Shown in pieces: positions 42,631-49,367 of a DNA stretch of 64,000 nt (position 1 is the stretch's first letter; the number at the start of each line of letters is the position of its first letter). The notes under the pieces are model-generated. The model was not told where the DNA came from, made no database searches, and was given only the letters and a program-made list of their open reading frames with translations. The position numbers were made by a program, and so were the translations under genes. Origin of the DNA: a phage; NCBI GenBank assembly GCA_012225525.1, contig GCA_012225525.1_3923.1; one strand, 5' to 3'.

Positions 42631-44046
42631 ATGAGCGAATTATTTAAACATGCGCACCTTCATGCAGGTCGAACTGAAAATGGTGCTGTAAACCATACTT
42701 CATCAATGTCTACTCTTGTAGACTTTTACAAAGCTGCTGGTTCAAGCCGTAGCAATGTAGAAATCTTACCAGACTTGTTCTACAAAGCTTTGCGTGAGGA
42801 TGTTGATGTTGCAGTTCGTATTTTACTGCATATGCGAGATGTACGAGAAGGCATGGGTGAGCGTAAAGCCTTCAGAACTGTTTTGCTTCAAGCGATTGAA
42901 GATGAAGTTTTAGAGCCTACGCAGGTTCTTCGCATTATGGATAAGATTGCAGAACTTGGTCGTTTTGATGACTTCAAAATCTTTGTAGGTACTCGTTTCG
43001 AGACAGATGCCTTCAAGCATTTAGAAGCAGCATTACTAGACCCTGCAACAGCAGGTTTGGCGGCTAAGTGGTTACCACGAGTCAAACCACGTCATAAGCA
43101 GTTTGTAAAACGTTTCTGCAAGTTTGCCAACTTGAGTGAGAAAGAGTACCGCACACTGTTGTCTGCACTATCTGATACAGTTGAGCAAAAAATCTCTGCT
43201 AATGAGTTTGGTAAGATTGACTACAGTAAGATTCCTTCACTTGCTGCTGCACGTTACCAAAAACTGTTTAACCGTAAAGATGGAGAGCGTTACAAAGCTT
43301 ACATCGAGTCCTTATCAAAAGGTGAGACTAAGATTAACGCTGGTGCTGTTTACCCATACGATGTGATTAAATCTTTCAAGTATGGTAATGCAGATGTTGC
43401 TAATGAGCAGTGGAAAGCACTACCAAACTGGATGGCAGAAGGTGAAAACATCTTGTGTATGTCTGATGTATCAAGTTCAATGTCTTGGGTGAATTTTGGC
43501 TCCATTACTGCTCTGGATATTGGTGTATCACTTGCCTTGTATGTAGCAGAACGCAATACAGGTTGCTTTAAGAATGAGTTGATGGTTTATTCGACAAACC
43601 CTCACTTCATCGAACTGAGTGGTGATTTACGAAACCGTCATCGTCAGGTGATGCGACACGTTGAATATGGCTCAACTAACTTACAAGCAGCTTTTGACCG
43701 CATTCTTGAAACAGGTAAAAGAAACAACTTGACTCAGAAAGATATGCCAAGTAAGCTTATCATCTTCTCCGATATGGAGTTCAATCAGGTTGATGGAGCT
43801 AACGGTCGTACAAACTTTGAAGCAATTCAGAGTAAGTACAAAAAAGCTGGATATGAGATGCCACAACTGGTATTCTGGTACTTAGCAAACCGTAATGGTA
43901 CTTGCGAAGTATCTGTTAAGGATAACGGTGTAGCAATGGTATCAGGGTTCTCTCCAGCCACTTTAAAAGCTCTGCTTGGTGGTGAGAAGTTTGACCCAAT
44001 CAGTGTAATGCTCAAAGCAGTAATGATTGACCGTTATATCTGGTAA
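42631..44046 (+). CDS. von Willebrand factor A (vWA) domain protein with MIDAS motif
   Basis: DVSSSMS (DxSxS) MIDAS motif about residue 280; 471 aa; sits immediately upstream of the tRNA array. Confidence 0.5.
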   Translation: MSELFKHAHLHAGRTENGAVNHTSSMSTLVDFYKAAGSSRSNVEILPDLFYKALREDVDVAVRILLHMRDVREGMGERKAFRTVLLQAIEDEVLEPTQVLRIMDKIAELGRFDDFKIFVGTRFETDAFKHLEAALLDPATAGLAAKWLPRVKPRHKQFVKRFCKFANLSEKEYRTLLSALSDTVEQKISANEFGKIDYSKIPSLAAARYQKLFNRKDGERYKAYIESLSKGETKINAGAVYPYDVIKSFKYGNADVANEQWKALPNWMAEGENILCMSDVSSSMSWVNFGSITALDIGVSLALYVAERNTGCFKNELMVYSTNPHFIELSGDLRNRHRQVMRHVEYGSTNLQAAFDRILETGKRNNLTQKDMPSKLIIFSDMEFNQVDGANGRTNFEAIQSKYKKAGYEMPQLVFWYLANRNGTCEVSVKDNGVAMVSGFSPATLKALLGGEKFDPISVMLKAVMIDRYIW

Positions 44047-44211: not shown

Positions 44212-44288
44212 CTCTGTTTAGCTCAGCTTGGTAGAGCGTTCCGTTTGGGGCGGTAAGGCCGGAGGTTCAAGTCCTCCAACAGAGACCA
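44212..44288 (+). tRNA. tRNA-Pro (anticodon TGG)
   Basis: Manual cloverleaf; T-arm GGAGG-TTCAAGT-CCTCC; CCA encoded. Confidence 0.7.
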
Positions 44289-44295
44289 AATTAAT

Positions 44296-44373
44296 GTTCC
44301 AGTAGACAAAATGGTAAAGTCACCACTCTTTCAAAGTGGATATCTGAGGGTTCAAATCCCTTCTGGAACGCCA
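44296..44373 (+). tRNA. tRNA-Glu (anticodon TTC)
   Basis: Acceptor GTTCCAG/CTGGAAC; anticodon loop CTTTCAA. Confidence 0.7.
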
Positions 44374-44463
44374 GTTTTGACAGAAGACCAATTACAGCAA
44401 ACTTAATCTACTCATCTGAAAGTTAATCGGACAAAGAAGATATTTGGTCTGGTCATTAAGAAT

Positions 44464-44540
44464 TGCGGGTATAGAGAAAGGGCGTCTCACATGTCTCATT
44501 AGCATGGTATCGGCAGGTTCGACTCCTGCACCCGCCTCCA
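44464..44540 (+). tRNA. tRNA-like element, anticodon arm unresolved
   Basis: Perfect T-arm GCAGG-TTCGACT-CCTGC and CCA end; internal GTCTCA duplication. Confidence 0.3.
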
Positions 44541-44623
44541 AATTTACAGAAGACCGTTTACAGCAATATTTATTAAATTTTTAGCGGAAAAATTGAAAGA
44601 TACGGTCTGGTAATACTAAACAT

Positions 44624-44700
44624 GGTTAGGAAGCACATAAGGTATGTGCGGTCGCCTGTTAAGCGAATGGCACAGGGTTCGAATCCCTGACTAACCGCCA
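44624..44700 (+). tRNA. tRNA-Asn (anticodon GTT)
   Basis: Anticodon loop CTGTTAA; T-arm CAGGG-TTCGAAT-CCCTG. Confidence 0.7.
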
Positions 44701-44769
44701 AATTTAGGAGAGAAGCGATTGCTCACCGATTTGTAAGGTGCAAGTCCTTAGCCTGAATAGAAATCAAAT

Positions 44770-44857
44770 GTGTCGTTATCCCGTAGATGGTAGCGGTGGG
44801 GACTGTAAATCCCTTGTCATTGAGACTCGGTAGGTTCGACTCCTACACGGCACACCA
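44770..44857 (+). tRNA. tRNA-Tyr (anticodon GTA), long variable arm
   Basis: Anticodon loop CTGTAAA; 88 nt. Confidence 0.7.
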
Positions 44858-44863
44858 AATAAA

Positions 44864-44941
44864 GGTTATGTAGTTTAATCTGGTTAAAATACTCCCCTGT
44901 CACGGGAGATGATGAGGGTTCAAATCCCTTCATAACCGCCA
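44864..44941 (+). tRNA. tRNA-Asp (anticodon GTC)
   Basis: Acceptor GGTTATG/CATAACC; anticodon stem-loop CTCCC-CTGTCAC-GGGAG. Confidence 0.75.
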
Positions 44942-45370
44942 ATTTTGAGAGGGCTATTTAGCCCCTCCCTTAAAGAGTTCTTACGAGTATTCTTTAAAGG
45001 AGCAGAAGACCAAATACAGCAAGAATGTATGAAATTTCAAGCCAATTCAATTTTGAAAATTTAAAACTTGGTCTGGCTCAACAAATTTACAGAAGACCGT
45101 TTACAGCAAAACTTAAACAATCTATTTCTCCGGTAAAGAAAAGGCGAAGGTTCGATTCCTTCACTCGGCAGATGTCGAGTTGGTGTAATGGTAGCACTTA
45201 AGATGATAAACAACGGTCTGGTAATTATCTTTGTAGATAAGTTATTAAGCTTACCTGTGAGTATGCGACCACAAAGGGTGAAAGGGTAAATTCTAGATTT
45301 AAACCCAAAAAGGCACATCGCTACAGACCTTAAGCAAGTCTGGGTAGCTTATCTACAAAGATAATTTAAT

Positions 45371-45446
45371 GGAAGTGTAGCAGAATGGTGATGCGGCAGA
45401 CTTTTAATCTGACAGGCGATGGGTTCGAATCCCTCCACTTCTACCA
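45371..45446 (+). tRNA. tRNA-Lys (anticodon TTT)
   Basis: Anticodon loop CTTTTAA; T-loop TTCGAAT. Confidence 0.65.
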
Positions 45447-45524
45447 AATTCACCCTTAACTGAGAAACACCTGCGCGGCTGGAAACACCCACTCAACAGT
45501 TTCTCTAACTAGGGTACTTATTCT

Positions 45525-45601
45525 GGTTCAGTCGCAGATAAGGTAATGCAAGGGTCTCATAAGCCCTATGAATGTGGGTTCGATTCCCATCTGAACCTCC
45601 A
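45525..45601 (+). tRNA. tRNA-Met or Ile2 (anticodon CAT)
   Basis: Acceptor GGTTCAG/CTGAACC; anticodon loop CTCATAA. Confidence 0.7.
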
Positions 45602-45602
45602 A

Positions 45603-45678
45603 GCTGGTATAGTTAAGAAGGTTATAACACTCCCCTGATAAGGGAACATCGGTGGTTCGATTCCACCTACCAGTACCA
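45603..45678 (+). tRNA. tRNA-Ile (anticodon GAT)
   Basis: Anticodon loop CTGATAA; T-arm GGTGG-TTCGATT-CCACC. Confidence 0.7.
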
Positions 45679-45693
45679 ATTTCAATAAAGTTG

Positions 45694-45722
45694 TTGACAT
45701 TGAGATGTGACTACTTTATAGT
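45694..45722 (+). promoter_or_regulatory. sigma70-like promoter inside tRNA array
   Basis: TTGACA-17-TATAGT. Confidence 0.5.
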
Positions 45723-45924
45723 AACCTTAGTTTTCGTTGCGTAGCGTCTATTTTGCAAATTTAAAATAAATGCAAACGACAATGTTTTTCTGGCAGTAGC
45801 TTGATAGGCTAAACACCAGTGAGGTCTTCCAATCCCTCATCAAAGAATTTGGCGTACTCGCCCACGGTATGATTAATAAGGTGGGCATCTTTAAGGGCTT
45901 TCTAAGAGAGTCTTTAAAGATAAT

Positions 45925-46001
45925 GCACCCTTAGTTCAATTGGATAGAGCAACGGTCTTCTAAATCGTTAGTTACAGGTTCGAATCCTGTAGGGTGTACC
46001 A
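45925..46001 (+). tRNA. tRNA-Arg (anticodon TCT)
   Basis: Anticodon loop CTTCTAA; T-arm ACAGG-TTCGAAT-CCTGT. Confidence 0.7.
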
Positions 46002-46143
46002 AATAGTTAGCAGATTACTTAGACGGCCTTAGCGGGTCTTCCTGTAGGGAGGTGGTCTGTATCTCATGTTTTCCAGAACATGTAAATAATCTGAGAAGAA
46101 GCTTGACAGTGTTGAGATAACAGGGTAAGCTTCGAATTATAAT

Positions 46144-46226
46144 ATGGGACGATGTTAAGACTCTAAGGCATGAGCAACGGCCTCCAAAACCGTTTCAAAG
46201 GGGTTCAACTCCTCCGTCCCATGCCA
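46144..46226 (+). tRNA. tRNA, probably Trp (anticodon CCA), atypically long D region
   Basis: Perfect acceptor ATGGGAC/GTCCCAT, CCA end, candidate loop CTCCAAA; 83 nt. Confidence 0.4.
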
Positions 46227-46239
46227 AAGTCTTATTAGG

Positions 46240-46327
46240 GGTAGGTAGCGGCTAATGGCAGCCAAACAGTCTTGAAAACTGTTGCCACTGTAGAGATACG
46301 GTGAGGGTTCGACTCCTTTACTTACCG
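46240..46327 (+). tRNA. tRNA-Ser (anticodon TGA), long variable arm
   Basis: Anticodon stem-loop ACAGT-CTTGAAA-ACTGT. Confidence 0.7.
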
Positions 46328-46483
46328 CCTAATAAGATTTACTCCGTCCATGCTTGTTCGCATTGTCGGTTTATCCCTCGTGTATTGTCGTACACTGTCA
46401 AAGCACCTAGTAGGTGTCACGGAGAAGAGATAATATCAAGCTCTCCAAAGGTTCTAGTCACCGGATTAAACAAGACTATGCAA

Positions 46484-46503
46484 AGACCTATTTAGGTCTT
46501 TTT
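46484..46503 (+). terminator. intrinsic terminator within tRNA region
   Basis: AGACCT-ATTT-AGGTCT followed by TTTT. Confidence 0.5.
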
Positions 46504-46582
46504 AGAGGGCTTCTAAGGTTATTACAGCTTGTTGTGGAACCTTGTTGCTTAGGTTCTTAGAAGTTCTCTAAAAAGATTTAAT

Positions 46583-46660
46583 GGGAGATTGACGGTAATT
46601 GGTAAACCTACCATCCTTAGAAGTTGGTGTTTGAGGGTTCGAATCCCTTGTCTCCCACCA
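46583..46660 (+). tRNA. tRNA with anticodon TAG (Leu-type) but short variable loop
   Basis: Anticodon loop CTTAGAA; discriminator A; 5-nt variable loop. Confidence 0.55.
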
Positions 46661-46667
46661 AATTAAT

Positions 46668-46743
46668 GCAGGTGTAGCAAAATGGTTATGCGGCTGACTC
46701 TTAATCAGTAAGACGATGGGTTCAATTCCCTCCACCTGTACCA
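46668..46743 (+). tRNA. tRNA-Lys (anticodon CTT)
   Basis: Anticodon loop CTCTTAA. Confidence 0.65.
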
Positions 46744-46749
46744 AACAAT

Positions 46750-46825
46750 GGGGTCATAGTTTATATGGTTAAAATTCGAGTTTTGCAAACTTGGGAACTG
46801 AGTTCAATTCTCAGTGACTCCACCA
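46750..46825 (+). tRNA. tRNA-Ala (anticodon TGC)
   Basis: Anticodon loop TTTGCAA; T-arm CTGAG-TTCAATT-CTCAG. Confidence 0.7.
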
Positions 46826-46831
46826 ATTAGT

Positions 46832-46906
46832 GCATCCATAGTTTAAACGGGAAAATTACAGTCTTCCAAACTGAGGTTGAGGGTTCGATTCCCTCTGGAT
46901 GCTCCA
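46832..46906 (+). tRNA. tRNA-Gly (anticodon TCC)
   Basis: Acceptor GCATCCA/TGGATGC; anticodon loop CTTCCAA. Confidence 0.7.
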
Positions 46907-46913
46907 AATTAAT

Positions 46914-46989
46914 GCTCCTATCGTATAATTGGCTATTACGGTTGCCTTGTAAGTAACTTATCAGGGTTCGAATCCTTGTGGGAGCACCA
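46914..46989 (+). tRNA. tRNA-Thr (anticodon TGT)
   Basis: Anticodon stem-loop GTTGC-CTTGTAA-GTAAC. Confidence 0.7.
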
Positions 46990-47085
46990 ATTTAGAGGTC
47001 AAGTGAAAGACCGCTTTGAGTCAACTGAAGACCGTAACAAATCCCACGGAGTTGAGTTAGCGGAACAACTTCAGACCTCTTTCAT
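46990..47085 (+). ncRNA. candidate structured spacer RNA
   Basis: Closing inverted repeat AGAGGTC...GACCTCT enclosing TGAAGACCGTAACAAATCC. Confidence 0.3.
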
Positions 47086-47160
47086 ACTCGCTTAGTTTAT
47101 ATGGTAAAACATCACCCTTACAAGATGAAGAAAAAGGTTCAAGTCCTTTAGTGAGTACCA
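47086..47160 (+). tRNA. tRNA-Val (anticodon TAC)
   Basis: Anticodon loop CTTACAA; T-arm AAAGG-TTCAAGT-CCTTT. Confidence 0.6.
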
Positions 47161-47161
47161 T

Positions 47162-47239
47162 GTTCCAGTATCCCAATTGGCAGAGGATGCAAGCTCAAAC
47201 CTTGTACTAGTGACGGTTCGAATCCGTCTTGGAACACCA
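47162..47239 (+). tRNA. tRNA with anticodon CAA (Leu-type) but short variable loop
   Basis: Anticodon stem-loop GCAAG-CTCAAAC-CTTGT; 6-nt variable loop; discriminator A. Confidence 0.55.
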
Positions 47240-47255
47240 ATTTTAGGAGAACACT

Positions 47256-47363
47256 ATGAGTAATAAATCAATTGCAAAAAAGTTTATAGCGTCATTCAAA
47301 AACAGGCGTAAAAACAACTCTTGTGAAAAACTGTATGGTGTTCTTGTAGGTAAGCAGGATTAG
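47256..47363 (+). CDS. very small ORF (35 aa) with strong RBS inside tRNA array
   Basis: TAGGAGAACACTATG; stop overlaps 5' end of the next tRNA. Confidence 0.2.
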   Translation: MSNKSIAKKFIASFKNRRKNNSCEKLYGVLVGKQD

Positions 47364-47429
47364 TTCAAATGGATAGAGCAACAGTCTACGAAGCTGTTAA
47401 TAGGGGTTCGAATCCCTTATCCTGCGCCA
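47354..47429 (+). tRNA. tRNA-Arg (anticodon ACG)
   Basis: Perfect acceptor GCAGGAT/ATCCTGC; anticodon loop CTACGAA. Confidence 0.7.
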
Positions 47430-47448
47430 ATTTAAAGAGGCTATTTAA

Positions 47449-48006
47449 ATGAGATACTTGAAGTATGCTTCATGGATTTTCTTAGCTTTGCTAGAGCCAT
47501 TGGCAGCAATCTTAGCAGTTATCTTAGCACCTTTTGTAGTTCCATTTTACAGTGAGAAGAAAGGACACTTACCTTTTGGATTCAGATGGATGGAGACATA
47601 TGACAACCCGATTGATGGTGATGAAGGTCACGTTAAAAGATGGGCTAAGATTAGAAAGATTGGTAAGCTTGGTGTCTATTTGCAGAGAGTTGGATGGCTC
47701 TGGAGAAACAAAGCTTATAACTTCTCTTACCATGTGTTAGGAAGAGATGTAAAAGATGTTACTAAGTGGAAAGGCAATATCAACGTAAGTTCTGACCCTG
47801 AAGATAATCAGACAGGTTATCTCCTAATGTGGAACAGTAATGCTTGGGGATTATTCGCTTTTATCCCATCAATTAAAGTCTTTGGTAAACAATTCTACTG
47901 GAGAATTTATGTTGGATGGAAGCTAAAAAGTGTTGTCCCAGAAGAAAGAGCATTCTCAAGGGAAAGAGTTATGTTGGCATTCTTTATTCATCCACTGAGA
48001 AAGTAA
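47449..48006 (+). CDS. membrane protein embedded in tRNA array
   Basis: 185 aa; N-terminal hydrophobic segments. Confidence 0.5.
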   Translation: MRYLKYASWIFLALLEPLAAILAVILAPFVVPFYSEKKGHLPFGFRWMETYDNPIDGDEGHVKRWAKIRKIGKLGVYLQRVGWLWRNKAYNFSYHVLGRDVKDVTKWKGNINVSSDPEDNQTGYLLMWNSNAWGLFAFIPSIKVFGKQFYWRIYVGWKLKSVVPEERAFSRERVMLAFFIHPLRK

Positions 48007-48014
48007 AGATTTAA

Positions 48015-48090
48015 AGGGGATTAGTTTACAAGGTTAAAACCTCGGTCTTTGAAATCGAAGAAGTTGGTTCAATTCCAACATCCCCCGCCA
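48015..48090 (+). tRNA. tRNA-Gln (anticodon TTG)
   Basis: Anticodon stem-loop TCGGT-CTTTGAA-ATCGA; T-arm GTTGG-TTCAATT-CCAAC. Confidence 0.65.
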
Positions 48091-48092
48091 AT

Positions 48093-48171
48093 GCTCCATT
48101 ACTCCAATTGGCAGAGAGGCCAGACTTAAAATCTGTGTTATGTATCGGTTCGAATCCGATATGGAGTACCA
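48093..48171 (+). tRNA. tRNA with anticodon TAA (Leu-type) but short variable loop
   Basis: Anticodon loop CTTAAAA; 7-nt variable loop; discriminator A. Confidence 0.55.
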
Positions 48172-48176
48172 AATTT

Positions 48177-48252
48177 AGCGGTATAGCATAACTGGCAATG
48201 CAGCAGTCTCTGAAGCTGTCTTATTAAGGTTCAAATCCTTATGCCGCTGCCA
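48177..48252 (+). tRNA. tRNA-Gln (anticodon CTG)
   Basis: Anticodon loop CTCTGAA; T-arm TAAGG-TTCAAAT-CCTTA. Confidence 0.65.
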
Positions 48253-48283
48253 CTTCTAAGGATTCTTACGAGAGTCCTTAAAT

Positions 48284-48359
48284 GTGGCCTTATCATAAAT
48301 GGTAATGACCCATGCTGTGAACATGGTCTATACGGGTTCAAATCCCGTAGGTCACCCCA
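48284..48359 (+). tRNA. tRNA-His (anticodon GTG)
   Basis: Anticodon stem-loop CCATG-CTGTGAA-CATGG. Confidence 0.7.
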
Positions 48360-48364
48360 ATTTA

Positions 48365-48439
48365 TAGTCCAAGTAGCTTATATGGTTAAAGCGCGTGTCT
48401 GAAAAACATGAGAAGAGGGTTCAAATCCCACTGGACTAC
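48365..48439 (+). tRNA. tRNA-Phe (anticodon GAA), CCA not encoded
   Basis: Acceptor TAGTCCA/TGGACTA; anticodon loop CTGAAAA. Confidence 0.65.
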
Positions 48440-48457
48440 CAATTTCAAAGGTGCTTA

Positions 48458-49192
48458 ATGAAAGAGATGACAGAACAAGGTAAGGAGATTTTTAATCTCT
48501 TAAAAACTGGTAAAGGGTTTTCTAACCCCCTTATTACTGGTGCAGCAGTTCTCGGTGGAACCGTAGCTGCCTCTACATCACTTGTAAGCTCTATTAGTTC
48601 TGTATCAGACCCTACAGTAAAGGATAAGCTTGTTGCTGCTGGACTTACAACAGTTCTGCTTAACAGCTTTACCACGAGTCTGACAAGCACTACATCAACT
48701 ACCAAAACACTGACAGATTACGGTCAAAAGTCCATTGATGAGTTTTCATCACGTATGCAGGTAGCAAAAGGTTATTCTAATGTTATGGGTGCAGCAGGTG
48801 AACAAGTTGGCTGTACACCATTTAGTGGTATTATGGGTGTTGCTACAGAGTATGGTCAAAAAGCTATTGATATGATTAACAGTGCACTAGACGGTGTTAA
48901 TGATGTATTAAGTGACTTACAAGACGCTATTGACAAAGGTCTTGATACTATTTCTGATTTAGCTAACCAAGCTGTTAGTAAGATTAATGAAGGTATCTCG
49001 AAGATTACAGCTTATGCAGATGAAGTTGTGCAGATGATTGAAGAAGAAGCTGCCCTTATTGCAGAGTACCTTAAAACGAATATCAATGGGTTCTTAGCAG
49101 GTATCTTACCAGACTGGTTTGATGATGCTTGTAAAACTGGTGTAATTGACACTATTGCAACACCAGAAATGAAGAACGCATTACAGAAATAA
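48458..49192 (+). CDS. Ser/Thr-rich hypothetical protein
   Basis: ATG 48458 after AAAGG; track start 48395 lies inside tRNA-Phe. Confidence 0.5.
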   Translation: MKEMTEQGKEIFNLLKTGKGFSNPLITGAAVLGGTVAASTSLVSSISSVSDPTVKDKLVAAGLTTVLLNSFTTSLTSTTSTTKTLTDYGQKSIDEFSSRMQVAKGYSNVMGAAGEQVGCTPFSGIMGVATEYGQKAIDMINSALDGVNDVLSDLQDAIDKGLDTISDLANQAVSKINEGISKITAYADEVVQMIEEEAALIAEYLKTNINGFLAGILPDWFDDACKTGVIDTIATPEMKNALQK

Positions 49193-49194
49193 AT

Positions 49195-49287
49195 GGAAGA
49201 TTAACCCTAAAAGGTAAGGGAGCAGTTTGCTAAACTGCCAGTAGCTGAGAAATCGGTGTACCAGTTCAAGTCTGGTATCTTCCTCCA
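49195..49287 (+). tRNA. tRNA-Ser (anticodon GCT), long variable arm
   Basis: Perfect acceptor GGAAGAT/ATCTTCC; anticodon stem-loop GCAGT-TTGCTAA-ACTGC. Confidence 0.75.
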
Positions 49288-49291
49288 ATTT

Positions 49292-49367
49292 GAATCCGTG
49301 ACAGAAATGGCTATGTGCCTGTCTGCAAAACAGGTTTATAAGGGTTCGAGTCCCTTCGGATTCTCCA
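49292..49367 (+). tRNA. tRNA-Cys (anticodon GCA)
   Basis: Perfect acceptor GAATCCG/CGGATTC; anticodon stem-loop CCTGT-CTGCAAA-ACAGG. Confidence 0.75.

Follow-up and report, generated by a model that had tools for sequence, protein, structure and literature searches.

Three leucine tRNA genes without a long variable arm in the tRNA array of a Felix O1-like phage

Three short-armed genes in the array

We have analysed a 64,000-nucleotide stretch of phage DNA (NCBI GenBank assembly GCA_012225525.1, contig GCA_012225525.1_3923.1), here called the window, which contains an array of transfer RNA (tRNA) genes, three of which combine a leucine anticodon with a short variable region. The region is 95-99% identical to those of ca. 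250 Felix O1-like myoviruses (Escherichia, Salmonella, Shigella, Citrobacter), and by its sequence the window is assigned to Felixounavirus and relatives, in the subfamily Ounavirinae. The array extends from 44212 to 49367 and holds all 26 tRNA genes that ARAGORN detected in the whole window, every one of them on the plus strand, with a few small open reading frames (ORFs) of unknown function between them (ARAGORN, Rfam). Nearly all of its tRNAs carry an encoded CCA, and the gene order is syntenic with that of the arrays of Felix O1 and of the Shigella phage Sf14.

The three leucine genes lie in the same orientation. The first, tRNA-Leu(UAG), at 46583-46660 (+), has 78 nt including the CCA, the anticodon loop CUUAGAA and the variable region (U)GUUU; tRNA-Leu(CAA), at 47162-47239 (+), also has 78 nt with the CCA, with the loop CUCAAAC and the variable region (A)CUAGU; and tRNA-Leu(UAA), at 48093-48171 (+), has 79 nt with the CCA, the loop CUUAAAA and the variable region GUUAUGU (folds taken from the ARAGORN brackets). 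In all three the anticodon loop has 7 nt with U33 and A37, and A73 is followed by the encoded CCA. The Rfam tRNA model (RF00005, gathering score 29) gave 38.9, 43.6 and 47.5 bits, respectively, with E-values from 1e-5 to 4e-8 in a 5.6-kb region, and because all three are above the gathering threshold with such E-values the matches are not due to chance. An earlier note on this DNA, made by manual folding, had placed tRNAs with anticodons TAG, CAA and TAA at exactly these positions; ARAGORN agrees in every coordinate, and its folds reproduce the loops given there (CTTAGAA, CTCAAAC, CTTAAAA) and the A73 of each gene. The suspicion voiced in the same note that the hand folds might be wrong can be set aside, as both ARAGORN and the Rfam covariance model (Infernal) arrive at them. 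The variable regions are indeed short and unpaired, ranging over 4-7 nt, with 4-5 nt in the UAG gene, 5-6 nt in the CAA gene and 7 nt in the UAA gene, the count depending on whether positions 26/44 and 27/43 are scored as paired or not.

One of the two traits of type II tRNAs, a long variable region (>10 nt, folded into a stem-loop), is therefore absent from all three genes; the variable regions of the CAA and UAA genes are slightly longer than the 4-5 nt of a canonical type I tRNA, and most of their relatives have exactly 5 nt. The other trait, a 3-bp D-stem with 13:22 unpaired and an enlarged D-loop, is found in the CAA and UAA genes, whose D-loop of 11 nt reads CAAUUGGCAGA in the ARAGORN folds. 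The D-arm of the UAG gene is irregular (UGACGGUAAUUGGUAAACCUA): it has a nucleotide too many and, according to the register chosen, a C.C or a C.U mismatch. Its anticodon stem contains a U.U mismatch as well, and together these irregularities explain why the gene has the lowest model score; owing to the irregular D-arm it is the least certain of the three. The UAA gene shares a G1.U72 wobble pair with E. coli leuZ. In the RefSeq record of Felix O1 all three genes are already annotated as tRNA-Leu.

The UAG gene reads CUA and probably the other CUN codons, the CAA gene reads UUG, and the UAA gene reads UUA and UUG. The loop of the phage tRNA-Leu(UAG), CUUAGAA, has C32 and A37-A38 where that of the host, UUUAGGU, has U32 and G37-U38 (PMC12482277, Table 8); having A37, the phage CUN reader would be without the m1G37 carried by the CUN-reading leucine tRNAs of the host.

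Long tRNAs are also present in the array, where they offer a contrast from within, and they are confined to tyrosine and serine: tRNA-Tyr(GUA) at 44770-44857 (+), of 88 nt, tRNA-Ser(UGA) at 46240-46329 (+), of 90 nt, and tRNA-Ser(GCU) at 49195-49287 (+), of 93 nt, have a long arm with variable regions of 15, 19 and 21 nt, respectively (ARAGORN; the serine genes score 31.1 and 46.2 bits in Rfam). The earlier note had seen no long-armed leucine tRNA in the array, and ARAGORN found none with a leucine anticodon in the whole 64-kb window; nor did it give other anticodons for the three genes, this being, together with a long-armed leucine tRNA, the outcome that the note had named as speaking against its claim. 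The idea of a hidden long-armed leucine tRNA elsewhere was dropped, as none was present in the window or among the sub-threshold Rfam matches in the array.

Leucine core, conservation and gene exchange

The anticodons of the three phage genes are those of E. coli leuZ (UAA), leuX (CAA) and leuW (UAG), leuQPV being CAG, and the likeness goes well beyond the anticodon. The D-loop of leuV and leuZ (GAAUUGGUAGA on a 3-bp stem) has the same architecture as that of the CAA and UAA genes, the phage leucine tRNAs have kept the D-loop AAUUGG-YA-NA known from E. coli tRNA-Leu, and the two sets share the D-arm, A14 A15 U16 U17 G18 G19 Y20 A20a, U48 (directly before the T-stem in all three window genes) and A73. 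They differ in that E. coli tRNA-Leu has 85-87 nt with a base-paired extra arm where the phage genes have 4-7 unpaired nucleotides. Each phage gene is, in effect, a bacterial tRNA-Leu core in which a short unpaired loop has replaced the long arm.

For an alignment (MAFFT) of 22 short-armed leucine tRNAs we drew on the window, Felix O1, a T5-group phage, PVP-SE1, an Aeromonas phage and uncultured viral contigs. Outside the T-loop the invariant positions were U8, A14, A15, G18, G19, A20a, A35, U48 and A73. The RNAalifold consensus is a cloverleaf that has a D-stem of 3 bp and lacks an extra arm, with compensatory changes in 18 of the 20 pairs; this consensus was the one used, as three sequences whose variable loops are longer stand out of register in the alignment, and for the same reason RNAalifold slightly undercounts pairing in those three rows. 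The leucine identity set published for E. coli comprises A73, A15:U48, G18G19, A20a and the contacts between D- and T-loop, whereas the anticodon and the long arm are not needed, a minimal arm-less tRNA-Leu being still charged (PMC9976931). The same source gives U8:A14 as important to recognition by leucyl-tRNA synthetase (LeuRS) in Aquifex aeolicus and for human mitochondrial tRNA-Leu (PMC9976931). At the level of sequence, then, the conserved positions of the short-armed phage tRNAs coincide with the published identity set of E. coli LeuRS. The UAG gene has the identity bases as well, though in a D-arm with one extra nucleotide and a mismatch. Of alternative identity features the three genes have no G3:U70, no long arm for seryl-tRNA synthetase (SerRS) and no G73. 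To our knowledge, the anticodons UAG, CAA and UAA are recognised by no anticodon-reading synthetase.

Isotype scores point the same way. A 2025 paper, in which the variable arm is not mentioned, tabulates tRNAscan-SE 2.0 scores for phage Sf14 (PMC12482277), a Mooglevirus of the same subfamily and with the same gene order as the window. Leucine is the top isotype for its Leu_CAA (49.1, next 36.1) and its Leu_TAA (60.2, next 54.2) (PMC12482277), and because these genes are identical to their window counterparts at 77/78 and 78/79 positions, respectively, the scores can be transferred. The comparison of isotypes that the earlier note had suggested thus comes out in favour of leucine for the CAA and UAA genes.

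The UAA gene is identical to that of Felix O1, and 216 phage records have it at an identity of 99% or more; the CAA gene has a single difference from its Felix O1 homologue. The UAG gene has ten, and eight of these amount to a compensatory exchange of one anticodon stem for another (CCAUC/GUUGG becomes UCUCG/CGAGA) around an unchanged loop. A fully compensatory swap that leaves the loop intact indicates selection on a working anticodon arm. Homologues of the UAG gene are also found in T5-like siphoviruses (ca. 85% identity in the 74 nt that align, 83% when the gene is taken at full length) and in PVP-SE1-like myoviruses (82%), phages that are otherwise unrelated to Felix O1. The U.U mismatch stands at the same anticodon-stem position in the T5-like and PVP-SE1 homologues and, being common to them, is conserved rather than a mark of decay.

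The slot of the UAG reader is unstable in evolution. In the window and in Felix O1 it holds the same T5-like gene, whose anticodon stems differ throughout and in a compensatory way (loci compared: window 46583-46660, L001 3184-3261, L486 1428-1504), and Mooglevirus Sf14 has an unrelated short-armed tRNA-Leu(UAG) at the syntenic position. Homing HNH endonuclease genes are present in the arrays of Felix O1 and of the T5 group. This instability, as read from the sequences, suggests exchange of tRNA genes between phages. A host-derived or prophage copy was considered as a source and rejected, as the UAA gene had no match in 5,426 complete E. coli genomes.

Relatives of the short-armed genes and surroundings of the array

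The closest known counterparts are the two tRNA-Leu genes of the T5 group (T5, BF23, Salmonella phage 5; GenBank AJ604531, annotated by the group that studied the T5 tRNAs). Both tRNA-Leu1 (UAG) and tRNA-Leu2 (UAA) have 77 nt and a 5-nt variable loop and, like the window genes, a 3-bp D-stem, an 11-nt loop (GAAUUGGCAUA), A73-CCA and the same hosts. The T5-group tRNAL1 is 83% identical to the window UAG gene and shares its U.U mismatch, but not the additional nucleotide of its D-arm. With the T5-group genes the CAA and UAA genes have an identity of no more than ca. 65%, and they differ from them in the CAAUUGGCAGA D-loop and in longer variable loops of 5-7 nt; moreover, the T5-group record lists no CAA isoacceptor and the window has one. 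Along similar lines, a T5-family phage of Aeromonas has three leucine tRNAs of 77 nt with the very same trio of anticodons, UAG, CAA and UAA. This phage, AhP_Mru1, also has tRNAs with CUA and UCA anticodons, annotated as suppressor tRNAs (L004 1900-1974 and 2796-2869), in the array with its three short-armed leucine tRNAs.

Among phages that infect enterobacteria the long form is found too. Phage T4 keeps a long variable region in its tRNA-Leu. PVP-SE1 has one short leucine tRNA and one of 86 nt, a tRNA-Leu(UAA) which serves the same hosts as the window genes but retains the long variable region, and these long forms beside short ones imply that both designs work in enterobacterial hosts. Several other tRNAs of PVP-SE1 that are not for Leu, Ser or Tyr are unusually long (81-86 nt), and at L003 7061-7146 ARAGORN gives a tRNA with a 4-base anticodon (ggca) where an 86-nt tRNA-Lys is annotated.

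In order to see how widespread the arm-less design is, we scanned viral sequences and bacterial genomes for it by pattern. Each scan listed at least 120 loci, and the frequencies given here, which hold among the matches listed, are sample estimates and not a census. The IMG/VR pattern (a Leu-type D-loop, a Leu anticodon and short spacing to the T-loop; at least 120 loci) brought up at least 168 short leucine tRNAs, and among the matches listed the serine tRNAs of these loci were long in 111 of 112 cases and the tyrosine tRNAs in 32 of 35 (ARAGORN). A second viral sample, independent of leucine since its loci were picked by a G73 tRNA pattern, gave the same picture among the matches listed: 22 of 59 leucine tRNAs were short (37%) as against none of the 80 serine and tyrosine tRNAs (Fisher p = 4e-10), the short ones being distributed over 14 of the 30 Leu-bearing loci. 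Long leucine tRNAs accompany the short ones in 7 of those 14 loci. The short viral leucine tRNAs listed have A73 (22/22), U48 (22/22) and a 3-bp D-stem (21/22), features that the other isotypes of the sample show in 48%, 28% and 27% of cases, respectively, and in which the long leucine tRNAs resemble the short ones.

The design is not restricted to viruses. With the pattern used for IMG/VR, a scan of bacteria with one genome per species produced at least 149 short genes for tRNA-Leu, of which the majority were UAA readers, 75-77 nt long, from Actinobacteria. Chromosomal tRNA-Leu genes of 74-78 nt, again mostly UAA, were listed for Nocardia, Gordonia, Mycobacterium, Arthrobacter, Rhodococcus and Bifidobacterium (L365-L484), and short ones were also among the matches for some Planctomycetota, Acidobacteriota and cyanobacteria. 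The literature calls bacterial type I tRNA-Leu rare. The actinobacterial genes resemble the window CAA and UAA genes in the CAAUUGGCAGA D-loop, 3-bp stem, A73 and a 5-nt '..AGU' variable loop. A case studied biochemically is the type I tRNA-Leu(CAA) of Streptomyces coelicolor, naturally arm-less, which exists beside type II tRNA-Leu and receives its leucine from a bacterial LeuRS (Fan et al., 2019, PMC6614811); it differs from the phage tRNAs in being a cellular gene, in that A73 is reported not to be an identity element and in its need for a special leucine-specific domain of the LeuRS (PMC6614811). Animal mitochondrial tRNA-Leu likewise lacks the long arm and bases its identity on A73 and A14, but it is organellar, with its own LeuRS, a loose structure rich in mismatches and no sequence relationship to the phage genes.

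The arm-less design is hence already known, from T5-group phages, Streptomyces and mitochondria, and the window does not reveal a new type of system. What has perhaps been under-appreciated is how common arm-less leucine tRNAs are in phage arrays, their confinement to leucine and their absence from serine and tyrosine. A full-text search, which did not reach the T5 papers of the 1980s, found no explicit description of the short arm in the tRNA-Leu of Felix O1 or T5. The premise of the earlier note, that bacterial and T4 tRNA-Leu have a long extra arm, holds for T4 and for the E. coli and Salmonella hosts, whose leucine tRNAs are all long-armed; as a general statement it fails, short arms being common in phages and Actinobacteria.

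Some features of the rest of the array deserve mention. Two tRNA-like signals on the plus strand remained below the threshold, at 45113-45163 and 46146-46220, with 22 bits in the tRNA model (partial) and 23 bits in the tRNA-Sec model; these are possibly remnants of tRNA genes that have decayed, and they could account for the earlier count of about 27 tRNA genes, one more than the number that ARAGORN gives. The ARAGORN fold of tRNA-Ser(GCU) (49195-49287) puts U at position 73, where bacterial tRNA-Ser typically has G, and tRNA-Ser(UGA) (46240-46329) is the sole tRNA of the array without a complete encoded CCA and scores barely above the Rfam threshold. Directly 5' of tRNA-Leu(UAG), a long hairpin-like stretch (46488-46587, +) gave a spurious 30-bit match to a plant microRNA precursor; it could be a terminator inside the array or a structure used in processing.

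No ORF resembling an aminoacyl-tRNA synthetase was found in or beside the array; those present correspond to DUF7338, DUF7217 and a DUF2828/DUF7788 RNA-binding protein, and a phage-encoded synthetase or tRNA enzyme at this place was accordingly rejected. The last of these, an ORF of 471 aa at 42631-44046 (+), is directly 5' of the array, with the Pfam domains DUF2828 and DUF7788 and a match to PHROG phrog_850, 'RNA-binding protein' (E = 4.5e-183). We take DUF2828 to be a relative of the TROVE/Ro60 family, and the partner of a Ro-like protein encoded next to a tRNA array might be tRNA-like or Y-RNA-like. Among the database matches, a 147-kb record labelled 'Staphylococcus phage SA1' (GU169904.1) contains a Felix O1-type tRNA region at 97% identity, and one 'Campylobacter' record matches as well. 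These are probably chimeric or contaminated assemblies, not true host-range outliers.

Charging, codon supply and alternative explanations

In our opinion the three genes very probably encode functional arm-less leucine isoacceptors. The host LeuRS most likely leucylates them, and their role would be to provide readers of UUA, UUG and CUA(N). The tRNAs would be transcribed along with the rest of the phage array, with their CCA already encoded. E. coli or Salmonella LeuRS would then leucylate them by way of A73 and the tertiary core of the D, T and variable loops, with no need of the arm or the anticodon, and the ribosome would most likely use them for codons that single-copy tRNA genes serve in the host and that the AT-rich phage uses far more than the host does. 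As the leucine tRNAs of the host are all type II and those of the phage short-armed, both types would coexist during infection. Bacterial SerRS and tyrosyl-tRNA synthetase (TyrRS) use the long extra arm, and this is the likely reason why serine and tyrosine tRNAs have kept it.

The codon usage fits such a supplementation of UUA, CUA and UUG, the usual role of phage tRNA arrays. A set of 41 E. coli genes served for comparison with 78 long ORFs in the window (39% G+C), and it turned out that, as fractions within leucine, UUA amounts to 0.26 in the phage and 0.10 in the E. coli sample, CUA to 0.10 and 0.04, and UUG to 0.14 and 0.10, while CUG falls from 0.57 in E. coli to 0.17 in the phage. The three codons named in the earlier note are thus all used more by the phage, and UUA, UUG and CUA together make up about half of the leucine codons in its ORFs. 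The anticodons supplied are UAA, UAG and CAA, and CAG, the multi-copy species of the host, is omitted. The same enrichment of TTA and CTA has been reported for Sf14 (PMC12482277).

Indirect evidence on charging comes from the T5 group. According to the depositors' note in AJ604531, changing the anticodon of its UUA reader to CUA 'converts this tRNA into effective amber suppressor', from which it follows that a short-armed homologue is charged and used in E. coli. Of the two other possibilities raised in the earlier note, that of atypical leucine tRNAs is supported by this suppressor, the leucine D-arm, the LeuRS identity elements and the Sf14 scores; that of tRNAs which decode differently finds no backing, there being no alternative identity set in the genes.

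There are, however, a number of points that weigh against our reading. The depositors' note does not name the amino acid inserted, and the suppressor tRNA is only 65% identical to the window UAA gene. The chief one is that in the single direct test found of E. coli LeuRS on a natural short-armed tRNA-Leu the enzyme did not charge the tRNA-Leu(CAA) of S. coelicolor, and it has been described as charging only type II tRNA-Leu (PMC6614811). The Streptomyces tRNA may be an unfair proxy, as A73 is not an identity element in that system; a similar independence of A73 is unlikely for the phage tRNAs, in which it is invariant (22/22). CUU is the leucine codon most enriched with respect to the host (0.27 against 0.09, i.e., 2.9x), and yet the phage has no tRNA that matches it exactly. 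The UAG gene has a defective-looking D-stem and the U.U mismatch, and some pipelines label near-identical copies of it 'tRNA-OTHER' or 'tRNA-pseudo'. For this gene the Sf14 table is of no help: in the Leu_TAG row leucine scores 67.4 and the next model 65.7 (PMC12482277), but we rejected the value because the Sf14 gene is not orthologous (ca. 46/78 identical). To these must be added the sampled nature of the viral and bacterial frequencies.

The alternative that best withstands the evidence is that loss of the arm has been selected, either as an escape from a host nuclease or toxin that recognises the arm or in order to avoid cross-charging by SerRS or TyrRS across hosts. This would extend the preferred explanation rather than replace it. 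It has in its favour that short forms reach 37% in the leucine-independent viral sample and that the UAA gene was in none of the 5,426 E. coli genomes (0/5,426), that unrelated phage families of the same hosts share the short form and have moved the UAG gene between them, and that the UAG loop is unlike the host's at three positions (CUUAGAA vs UUUAGGU), a pattern linked elsewhere to evasion of nucleases. Phage tRNAs are also known to act against tRNA-cleaving defences such as PARIS (PMC11464382), and eukaryotic Schlafen nucleases are reported to target type II tRNAs. However, a bacterial nuclease requiring the extra arm of tRNA-Leu is not known to us, and none came up in a literature search. 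The long form does not appear to be counter-selected in phages, as it persists in half of the viral loci with short forms listed (7/14), in PVP-SE1 and in T4, nor is a phage-defence explanation needed for a design that free-living Actinobacteria carry on their chromosomes, and neutral loss of a dispensable element is simpler. We therefore consider selected loss unlikely; part of this reading is that the gene has spread horizontally among unrelated virulent enterobacterial phages (Felix O1-like, T5-like and PVP-SE1-like).

It is more improbable still that one or more of the genes, and especially the UAG gene, is a decaying pseudogene or has a role outside translation, as a nuclease decoy or a signal for polycistronic processing. 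The low score of the UAG gene (38.9 bits), its D-stem mismatch and extra nucleotide, its U.U mismatch and the 'tRNA-pseudo' and 'tRNA-OTHER' labels would agree with decay, and several 'tRNA-like RNAs with unknown functions' are recorded for the array of the T5 group, just as the window has two sub-threshold remnants. Set against this are the compensatory replacement of the anticodon stem, the intact acceptor and T arms, A73 and the CCA, all of which argue for purifying selection, and the sharing of the U.U mismatch with T5-like phages and PVP-SE1; the CAA and UAA genes, for their part, have a regular structure and hardly vary over more than 200 genomes. A decoy or pseudogene role is conceivable for the UAG gene only.

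Least credible of all, and by a good distance from being probable, is that the tRNAs are charged with another amino acid or by an enzyme other than LeuRS and that UUA, UUG or CUA are partly recoded: the missing hallmark arm of host tRNA-Leu, the failure of E. coli LeuRS on one natural short-armed tRNA-Leu, the undetermined isotype that some pipelines return for the UAG gene and the closeness of the Ile2 and Lys models to Leu in the Sf14 Leu_TAG row (a different gene) could be cited for it, but the full set of identity elements for E. coli LeuRS is there and does not vary in the family, the G3:U70 of Ala, the long arm of Ser and G73 are all missing, the isotype models rank Leu first for the CAA and UAA genes, the array has no synthetase-like ORF, and recoding would alter nearly every protein, given that these three codons are about half of the leucine codons of the phage.

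Functional arm-less leucine tRNAs thus remain our preferred explanation, and the finding is real but not new biology. It matters for annotation, as the 'tRNA-OTHER' and pseudogene calls of the pipelines are a consequence of the unusual shape of short-armed leucine tRNAs. It also bears on the published claim that E. coli LeuRS charges only type II tRNA-Leu, for which the Felix O1 and T5 genes are substrates for a re-test, and compact leucine tRNAs that work in E. coli may offer a possible chassis for engineering suppressor or orthogonal tRNAs. If selected loss of the arm were true after all, the contrast between ca. 37% arm-less leucine tRNAs and no arm-less serine or tyrosine tRNAs would reflect an arms race, not just the indifference of LeuRS to the arm. 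Above all, a generalisation is corrected, since over a third of the sampled viral leucine tRNAs, and many actinobacterial genes, have no long arm. The fact that leucine tRNAs lose the arm in the G73-picked sample, and serine and tyrosine tRNAs do not, is a natural replicate of the indifference to the arm that E. coli LeuRS displays in vitro.

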